This document shows, piece by piece, positions 37,969-38,746 of a stretch of DNA of 64,000 nt; position 1 is the stretch's first letter, and each line of letters starts with the position of its first letter. The stretch is from Escherichia coli (GTDB lineage: Bacteria; Pseudomonadota; Gammaproteobacteria; Enterobacterales; Enterobacteriaceae). Both the position numbers and the translations under genes were made by a program. The notes below the pieces were generated by a model that was not told the origin of the DNA, searched no databases, and saw only the letters and a list, made by a program, of their open reading frames with translations. The stretch is from NCBI RefSeq assembly GCF_003334355.1, contig NZ_QOWP01000004.1; one strand, given 5' to 3'.

Positions 37969-38746
37969 TATTCCCACCCAGAATAACCAACTTTATTTTT
38001 ATGCGGTTTCACCGCACCCTGTGATGTCGCCGGGAAGCCCCGGTAAAAATAATTAGCATTAGAATAGTTGCGATAAGCTGCAATAAGCAGAGCCACCTTT
38101 TTGGTTTAATAAGTCCTTACAAATAGAAGGGGGTCTTTACACTTATCTAAGATTTTTCCTAAATCGACGCAACTGTACTCGTCACTACACGCACATACAA
38201 CGCAGGGGGGCTGCGATTTTCAATAATGTGTGATGCAGATCACACAAAACACTCAATTACTTAACATAAATGTATAAGTCATACTTTTGTTTTGGGTGTA
38301 TTTCAATCTGTTAAAAAGTTTTTCGCTACGCTAGCAAGCAAAAATGAAACAGGAATAATCGAAATGGGATGTTGCGCACAGTTAAAATAACTCACCGTAA
38401 ATAATCATCTGCTATAAATAATCACTTTCATGCAATACCAGATAAGCTATTTTTAAACAGACACTTACCGCACAACAAACTAATTAAATACAAAGAAAGG
38501 CAACAATCAACATAATGTTAATGAAATGTTTTACATATATTAACCACTTGTTTAATGCGGAGAATCAGTACACTATTTTCTTATAATTACATTTGAAATT
38601 ATATGATCACCGGGAGTGATTGATTAATTGTCTTTACTAATAATCAGACTAATATTTACCTGTTTGACCGAGTTGGGATTGCGTCGTTTCTCCATTAGGA
38701 GTAAAGCTTTAATGTCACCTGAAGTTCACAGAATAAGGAACAGGTT
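37969..38746. promoter_or_regulatory. flhDC class 1 promoter / long 5' leader region, divergent from uspC; uninterrupted by any IS element
   Basis: About 780 bp AT-rich intergenic region, conserved position; contains CRP site at 38229-38244. Confidence 0.7.
38229..38244. promoter_or_regulatory. CRP binding site of the flhDC promoter
   Basis: TGTGATGCAGATCACA: perfect TGTGA-N6-TCACA palindrome, located where the known CRP activator site (about -72) of flhD is expected. Confidence 0.7.

Follow-up and report, generated by a model that had tools for sequence, protein, structure and literature searches.

The interval at positions 37969-38746 of a 64,000-nt stretch of Escherichia coli DNA (throughout, the window) coincides exactly with the flhD-uspC intergenic region of 778 bp, as delimited by the list of open reading frames and their start codons. 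On one side the genes run motA-flhC-flhD and on the other uspC-otsA, with motB beyond motA and otsB beyond otsA. flhD and uspC are divergent and flhC and motA lie downstream of flhD, which is the layout of the flhDC control region. Public records that are identical or nearly identical to the window carry the same gene annotation, and the FlhD protein accession (WP_001295647.1) is common to strains ET650, W3110 and PSS-12. Comparison of the encoded proteins showed that FlhD and FlhC of the window are both intact and identical to those of K-12, and that UspC differs from K-12 UspC at one residue (Q62 in the window, H in K-12). The other flagellar and chemotaxis genes of the window appear intact as well, judged by their length. 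The features discussed below are collected in Table 1.

Table 1. Features of the flhD-uspC region and other loci of the window mentioned in the text
Feature	Position	Strand	Description
flhC CDS	37037..37615	-	192 aa; annotated as flhC in ET650, MG1655 and PSS-12
flhD CDS	37618..37968	-	116 aa; start MHTSELL, ATG at 37968
Equivalent of the K-12 antisense RNA AsflhD	37947..38165	+	Transferred from MG1655 b4839 (1978176-1978395) via alignment
5' untranslated leader of flhDC	37969..38165	-	197 nt (K-12: 198 nt); start mapped by homology
Likely RcsB/RcsAB operator, TAGGAAAAATCTTA	38148..38161	-	+5 to +18; identical to K-12
Putative weak sigma-70 promoter of flhDC	38172..38200	-	-35 TTGTAT (38200-38195), 17-bp spacer, -10 TACAGT (38177-38172)
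CRP site, TGTGATGCAGATCACA	38229..38244		-64 to -79, centre -71.5 (class I position), relative to the K-12-mapped +1
Empty IS5 target, TTAA	38261..38264		Occupied in W3110; present once in the window
Empty IS1 target, CATAAATG	38265..38272		Holds IS1H in MG1655; single copy in the window
AT-rich far-upstream region	38276..38746		Shared with the divergent uspC promoter; from base composition
uspC CDS	38747..39175	+	142 aa; ATG at 38747; public annotations agree
fliC	61105-62823	-	572 aa (498 aa in K-12)
Rfam matches outside the interval	18211-18518 (-), 32510-32587 (+), 3847-3922 (-), 14233-14275 (+), 50814-51113 (-)

An Rfam scan of the whole window gave no family match within the interval, and its matches did not include AsflhD or MotR. 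The AsflhD equivalent was located by alignment with MG1655 and contains six differences from K-12. An equivalent of MotR (b4828), a small RNA of K-12, would overlap the 3' end of flhC at 36979-37073 on the minus strand, a placement made by coordinate offset from MG1655 only. Elsewhere in the window, the Rfam scan matched the MicL sRNA, C0465, naRNA4 and ES036, as well as three clustered tRNA genes.

Insertion sequence targets upstream of flhD

The region upstream of flhD has a record of acquiring insertion sequences (ISs) in K-12. IS5 has been found there at a TTAA at -99 to -96, further IS1 or IS5 elements lie at -166, -303 and -315, stimulatory elements occur out to -476, and inactivating insertions occur in the flhDC leader and in the genes themselves (PMC5100188). 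A second paper counts flhDC among the places where IS5 inserts in connection with stress, and identifies by name regulators binding this region (PMC5493358). The initial annotation had called the roughly 780 bp upstream of flhD a hotspot for IS1 and IS5 in laboratory K-12 stocks, which these two papers document, and had described it as uninterrupted here. The size corresponds to the 778 bp between the two ATG codons, and the uninterrupted state is borne out by the IS targets, by searches for IS sequences, and by collinearity with other genomes.

Alignment with MG1655 and W3110 showed that the IS insertion points of both strains are empty, single-copy targets in the window. The two targets, TTAA and CATAAATG, adjoin at 38261-38272, and neither is duplicated around an insert. 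The distance between flhD and uspC is 778 bp, whereas in the two K-12 strains an IS lies between the genes: MG1655 has 1555 bp owing to IS1H, and W3110 has 1978 bp. When the IS1H of MG1655 and the IS5 of W3110 were compared by blastn with the interval and with the whole 64-kb window, only chance matches were obtained (at most 19 nt, E >0.1). A scan with ten IS terminal sequences, among them two IS1 ends that match or derive from the MG1655 copy, gave no match in the interval with up to four mismatches allowed, and a repeat search found no target-site duplication bracketing anything within it.

Of 5426 complete E. coli genomes, 5272 contain 80% or more of the interval as a single collinear match. 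Among the 5422 genomes with a match, identity is 95-100% with 58 exceptions, and the matches listed are 778-780 bp long, with the 778-bp and 779-bp forms both common among them. In 879 genomes the sequence reaches 99% identity or more, and natural isolates have it at 100%; strain ET650 is identical over all 778 bp. With thousands of collinear genomes, a hidden element is very unlikely; an IS remnant concealed in the interval was considered and rejected on this collinearity, on the lack of similarity to IS1 or IS5, and on the lack of a match to the IS ends scanned.

The closest genome is that of PSS-12, a human faecal isolate from Ecuador, in which the 25 kb corresponding to positions 36000-60999 are 100.0% identical (rounded) to the window. 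In the 3 kb that were compared base by base, one base differs, within flhC. This base (position 37551, codon 22 of flhC) results in an L22Q substitution in FlhC of PSS-12, and the FlhC of the window is of the K-12 type.

Promoter, leader and differences from K-12

The transcription start of flhDC was carried over from K-12 by homology. The TTAA at -99 to -96 (PMC5100188) corresponds to positions 38261-38264 of the window, so that +1 falls at 38165 on the minus strand and, in turn, the centre of the CRP site at -71.5. This start agrees with the 198-nt leader of K-12 (end at 1978395) minus a 1-bp deletion in the leader of the window; the position of the CRP site and the leader length are both based on the annotation of MG1655 and on the statement about TTAA in PMC5100188. 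Just upstream of this start, the sequence can be read as a weak sigma-70 promoter. A simple consensus scan for promoters and terminators did not report it, as is expected of an activator-dependent promoter, and returned one promoter-like site on the plus strand (38359-38388), which is fewer than in shuffled sequences.

Early in the leader lies the motif TAGGAAAAATCTTA, which is likely to be the RcsB/RcsAB motif reported by Francez-Charlot 2003. That the flhDC promoter has an RcsB/RcsAB site nearby has been documented (PMC5829831). H-NS and other repressors bind the region upstream of flhDC (PMC5493358), and the far-upstream part of the interval, in which the G+C content is 31.8% and drops to 26.5% (window mean 50.3%), is the kind of DNA that H-NS has been reported to bind here (PMC5493358).

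For the comparison with K-12, IS1H and one copy of its target (CATAAATG) were removed from the MG1655 sequence prior to alignment. The resulting IS-less sequence aligns with the window over 779 columns with 11 differences. Six of these fall in the leader, where the 1-bp deletion relative to K-12 lies at 38044, and one is found just upstream of the -35 element, at 38203. The latter also affects a short GC stem of 5 bp (CGCAG-GGGGG-CTGCG, 38201-38215, on both strands) between the CRP site and the -35 element, which is broken in K-12 by a G at 38203. The stem was returned by the promoter and terminator scan, and we regard it as probably a chance occurrence.

A consensus CRP site and its alleles

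The window contains two matches to TGTGA-N6-TCACA, compared with 0.06 expected, and one of 100 shuffled windows reached two. One of these matches is the site at 38229-38244, which the initial annotation had described as perfect and located at the expected position. It matches the consensus without deviation and, provided that the start is the K-12 start, is centred at one of the positions typical of class I CRP sites, which lie near -61.5, -71.5, -82.5 or -92.5 (PMC11894529). CRP is a positive regulator of the flhDC region, and dependence on cAMP-CRP is known in K-12 (PMC5493358). A full-text literature search for the sequence of the site found no papers. The second perfect match, TGTGATGTGAATCACA, is located at 47036-47051, about 85-100 bp upstream of the start of AzuC, a 28-aa small protein (MKLRKILKSMFNNYCKTFKDVPPGNMFR) encoded at the end of a minus-strand ORF (46867-47013). 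azuC is regulated by CRP, which the location of this site fits.

At the promoter-proximal end of the flhDC site, position 38229 is a T in the window and a C in K-12, which turns the K-12 sequence into CGTGATGCAGATCACA (CGTGA instead of TGTGA). The two alleles were counted with allele-specific 45-mers in which every 28-base seed spans base 38229. At least 4781 of 5426 genomes (88%) have the T allele. The C allele was matched by 417 (7.7%), mostly laboratory derivatives of K-12 together with some natural isolates. The perfect site is therefore species-typical rather than improved, and K-12 has the minority form. In an exact scan of contigs for the 16-mer, the matches listed were mostly chance occurrences in unrelated phyla, with one useful locus: Enterobacter sp. 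CC120223-11 carries the same 16-mer, in its T form, about 281 nt upstream of flhD. With this outgroup the K-12 state looks derived, and the C allele probably arose from the T form.

Interruptions across the species

An uninterrupted flhDC region is the default of the species, found in approximately 97% of complete E. coli genomes. We counted the exceptions with a 535-nt query (-1 to -535), which is too short to bridge IS1-sized gaps and matched 5592 places in 5422 genomes; splits of 0.77 kb or more upstream of the promoter occur in about 170 of these 5422 genomes (~3%). A 778-nt query, which does bridge gaps of this size, added 118 places. K-12 derivatives account for many of the split loci, and natural cases exist too. 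Because the IS-free state is the default, finding it in a given strain carries little information.

Three genomes illustrate what has happened to the region elsewhere. Chicken isolate BS-01 (NZ_CP172816.1) carries an IS1 at the equivalent of 38264-38267, the hot spot of MG1655, in a background that is not K-12 (T allele of the CRP site, non-K-12 UspC). This natural IS1 indicates that capture of ISs at this place is not solely an event of laboratory K-12. In human isolate AUSMDU00014361 (NZ_CP045827.1), about 228 bp have been deleted (equivalent to 38129-38356), which takes away the promoter, the start site and the CRP site and leaves flhD and flhC intact; this isolate is presumably non-motile. 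In laboratory strain KMS2005 (NZ_CP079991.1), an IS5 upstream of flhDC adjoins a deletion of flhD and the 5' end of flhC.

Regulation of flhDC and alternative readings

We consider it very likely, at a probability of roughly 95%, that the interval is the native, unrearranged flhDC control region of a commensal-type E. coli nearly identical to PSS-12, and we found no sequence evidence that contradicts this. By analogy with K-12, minus-strand transcription would start near position 38165, from the weak sigma-70 promoter. cAMP-CRP bound to the consensus site at -71.5 would activate it in the class I manner, through a contact to the RNA polymerase alpha subunit's C-terminal domain. Negative inputs would be those of K-12, received by the 197-nt leader and by the AT-rich DNA farther upstream, with RcsB, H-NS, LrhA, OmpR and others acting on the DNA, and CsrA and small RNAs acting on the transcribed leader. 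An IS1 or IS5 located between about -96 and -476, as in some laboratory stocks of K-12, would lift this repression and raise motility; in the interval studied here there is no mobile element to do so. With both classic targets empty, flhDC should be under native, catabolite-dependent and repressible control.

Several other readings of the same DNA deserve consideration. The region could be native and yet a stronger allele than that of K-12, in which case the T at 38229 would give more cAMP-CRP-dependent expression of flhDC and a strain that is motile without an IS, and the weakened K-12 site would be the one that profits from an IS. That K-12 differs at exactly this base, that the T form prevails among E. 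coli genomes with the C form mostly confined to K-12 derivatives, and that the Enterobacter outgroup has the T form all speak for it. However, base 38229 is the outermost position of the half-site, where a modest effect would be expected, the C allele is found in some natural isolates too, and BS-01 combines the T allele with an IS1 at the hot spot, so that gain of an IS is not confined to the C allele. We consider a stronger allele unlikely. Similarly doubtful, and perhaps slightly more so, is the converse view of K-12 as the odd strain, in which a derived defect of the CRP site (C at -64) might reduce the native expression of flhDC and favour the capture of ISs. If true, this defect would help to explain both the poor motility of IS-free K-12 and the ready fixing of ISs in it, and strains with the consensus site would need no IS for motility. 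BS-01 argues against a strict link between the C allele and ISs, and this isolate also weakens the notion that ISs are gained only with the K-12 form of the CRP site.

Two further readings concern the function of what appears intact. Point changes and the 1-bp leader deletion may have altered sites for small RNAs, CsrA or repressors, leaving the region intact in looks only. In its favour, the region differs from K-12 at 11 places, of which six are in the leader. However, 879 genomes have this sequence at no less than 99% identity, natural isolates have it at 100%, and the 778-bp and 779-bp forms of the interval are both common among the matches listed. Such ordinary alleles of the population are wild type by definition, and we hold this reading to be improbable. 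The CRP-like palindrome might also be a functionless chance match, a reading whose sole argument is that motif matches can arise by chance. Against this, 0.06 matches are expected per window, the motif aligns with the CRP-site region of K-12 flhDC at a class I position, it is conserved in 88% or more of E. coli genomes as well as in an Enterobacter species, and CRP is a listed positive regulator of the region (PMC5493358), making a chance match highly improbable. The native control region remains our preferred reading.

Does a native control region imply a natively regulated flagellar regulon? The initial annotation had suggested a wild-type-regulated regulon from the intact region together with a fliC unlike that of K-12. 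The latter observation stands: the FliC of the window is 572 aa long as opposed to 498 aa in K-12, identity to K-12 FliC is 89% and 95% at its two ends, and its centre is unrelated. The gene is 100% identical to fliC of PSS-12, ET896, LR-27 and HCP6S3_I2 and 99.9% identical to that of ATCC 8739, and at least 80% of it is present in just 136 of 5426 genomes. As for regulation, the wild-type state is a reasonable default that the sequence itself does not show, and the fliC serotype is uninformative on this point. The regulators that act in trans are located outside the interval. Likewise, motility cannot be read from the IS-free state, and what we expect of it here derives from work on K-12.

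Comparison with known systems

The region is a textbook promoter in its ordinary state, and the finding as such is already known. Its use lies in the comparison with the sequenced K-12 strains, as flhDC of this strain is in a native configuration, unlike that of MG1655 and W3110, which is useful for motility work. MG1655 (NC_000913.3) has the same locus and the same target, but contains a 768-bp IS1 with an 8-bp duplication of CATAAATG at the equivalent of 38265-38272, a site that is empty in the window. W3110 likewise shares the locus and the TTAA, but there a 1195-bp IS5 flanked by TTAA accounts for the longer interval, whereas in the window TTAA occurs once and IS5 is absent. Closer still are IS-free K-12 strains such as DH5a (e.g. 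NZ_CP010439.1), which have the same flanking genes, the same layout of promoter, leader and upstream region, and an interval that is within 1 bp in length and 98.6% identical. FlhD and FlhC are identical between these strains and the window, and the 11 base differences include a T in place of C where the CRP site faces the promoter, and a leader that is 1 bp shorter in the window. K-12, with its minority allele of the CRP site, is no neutral reference for the flhDC promoter.

Beyond flhDC, the region is most similar to class I CRP-dependent promoters such as lac, with which it shares a consensus TGTGA-N6-TCACA site at a class I position, here -71.5. Unlike promoters of the lac type, that of flhDC is subject to many repressors and is followed by a long regulatory leader.
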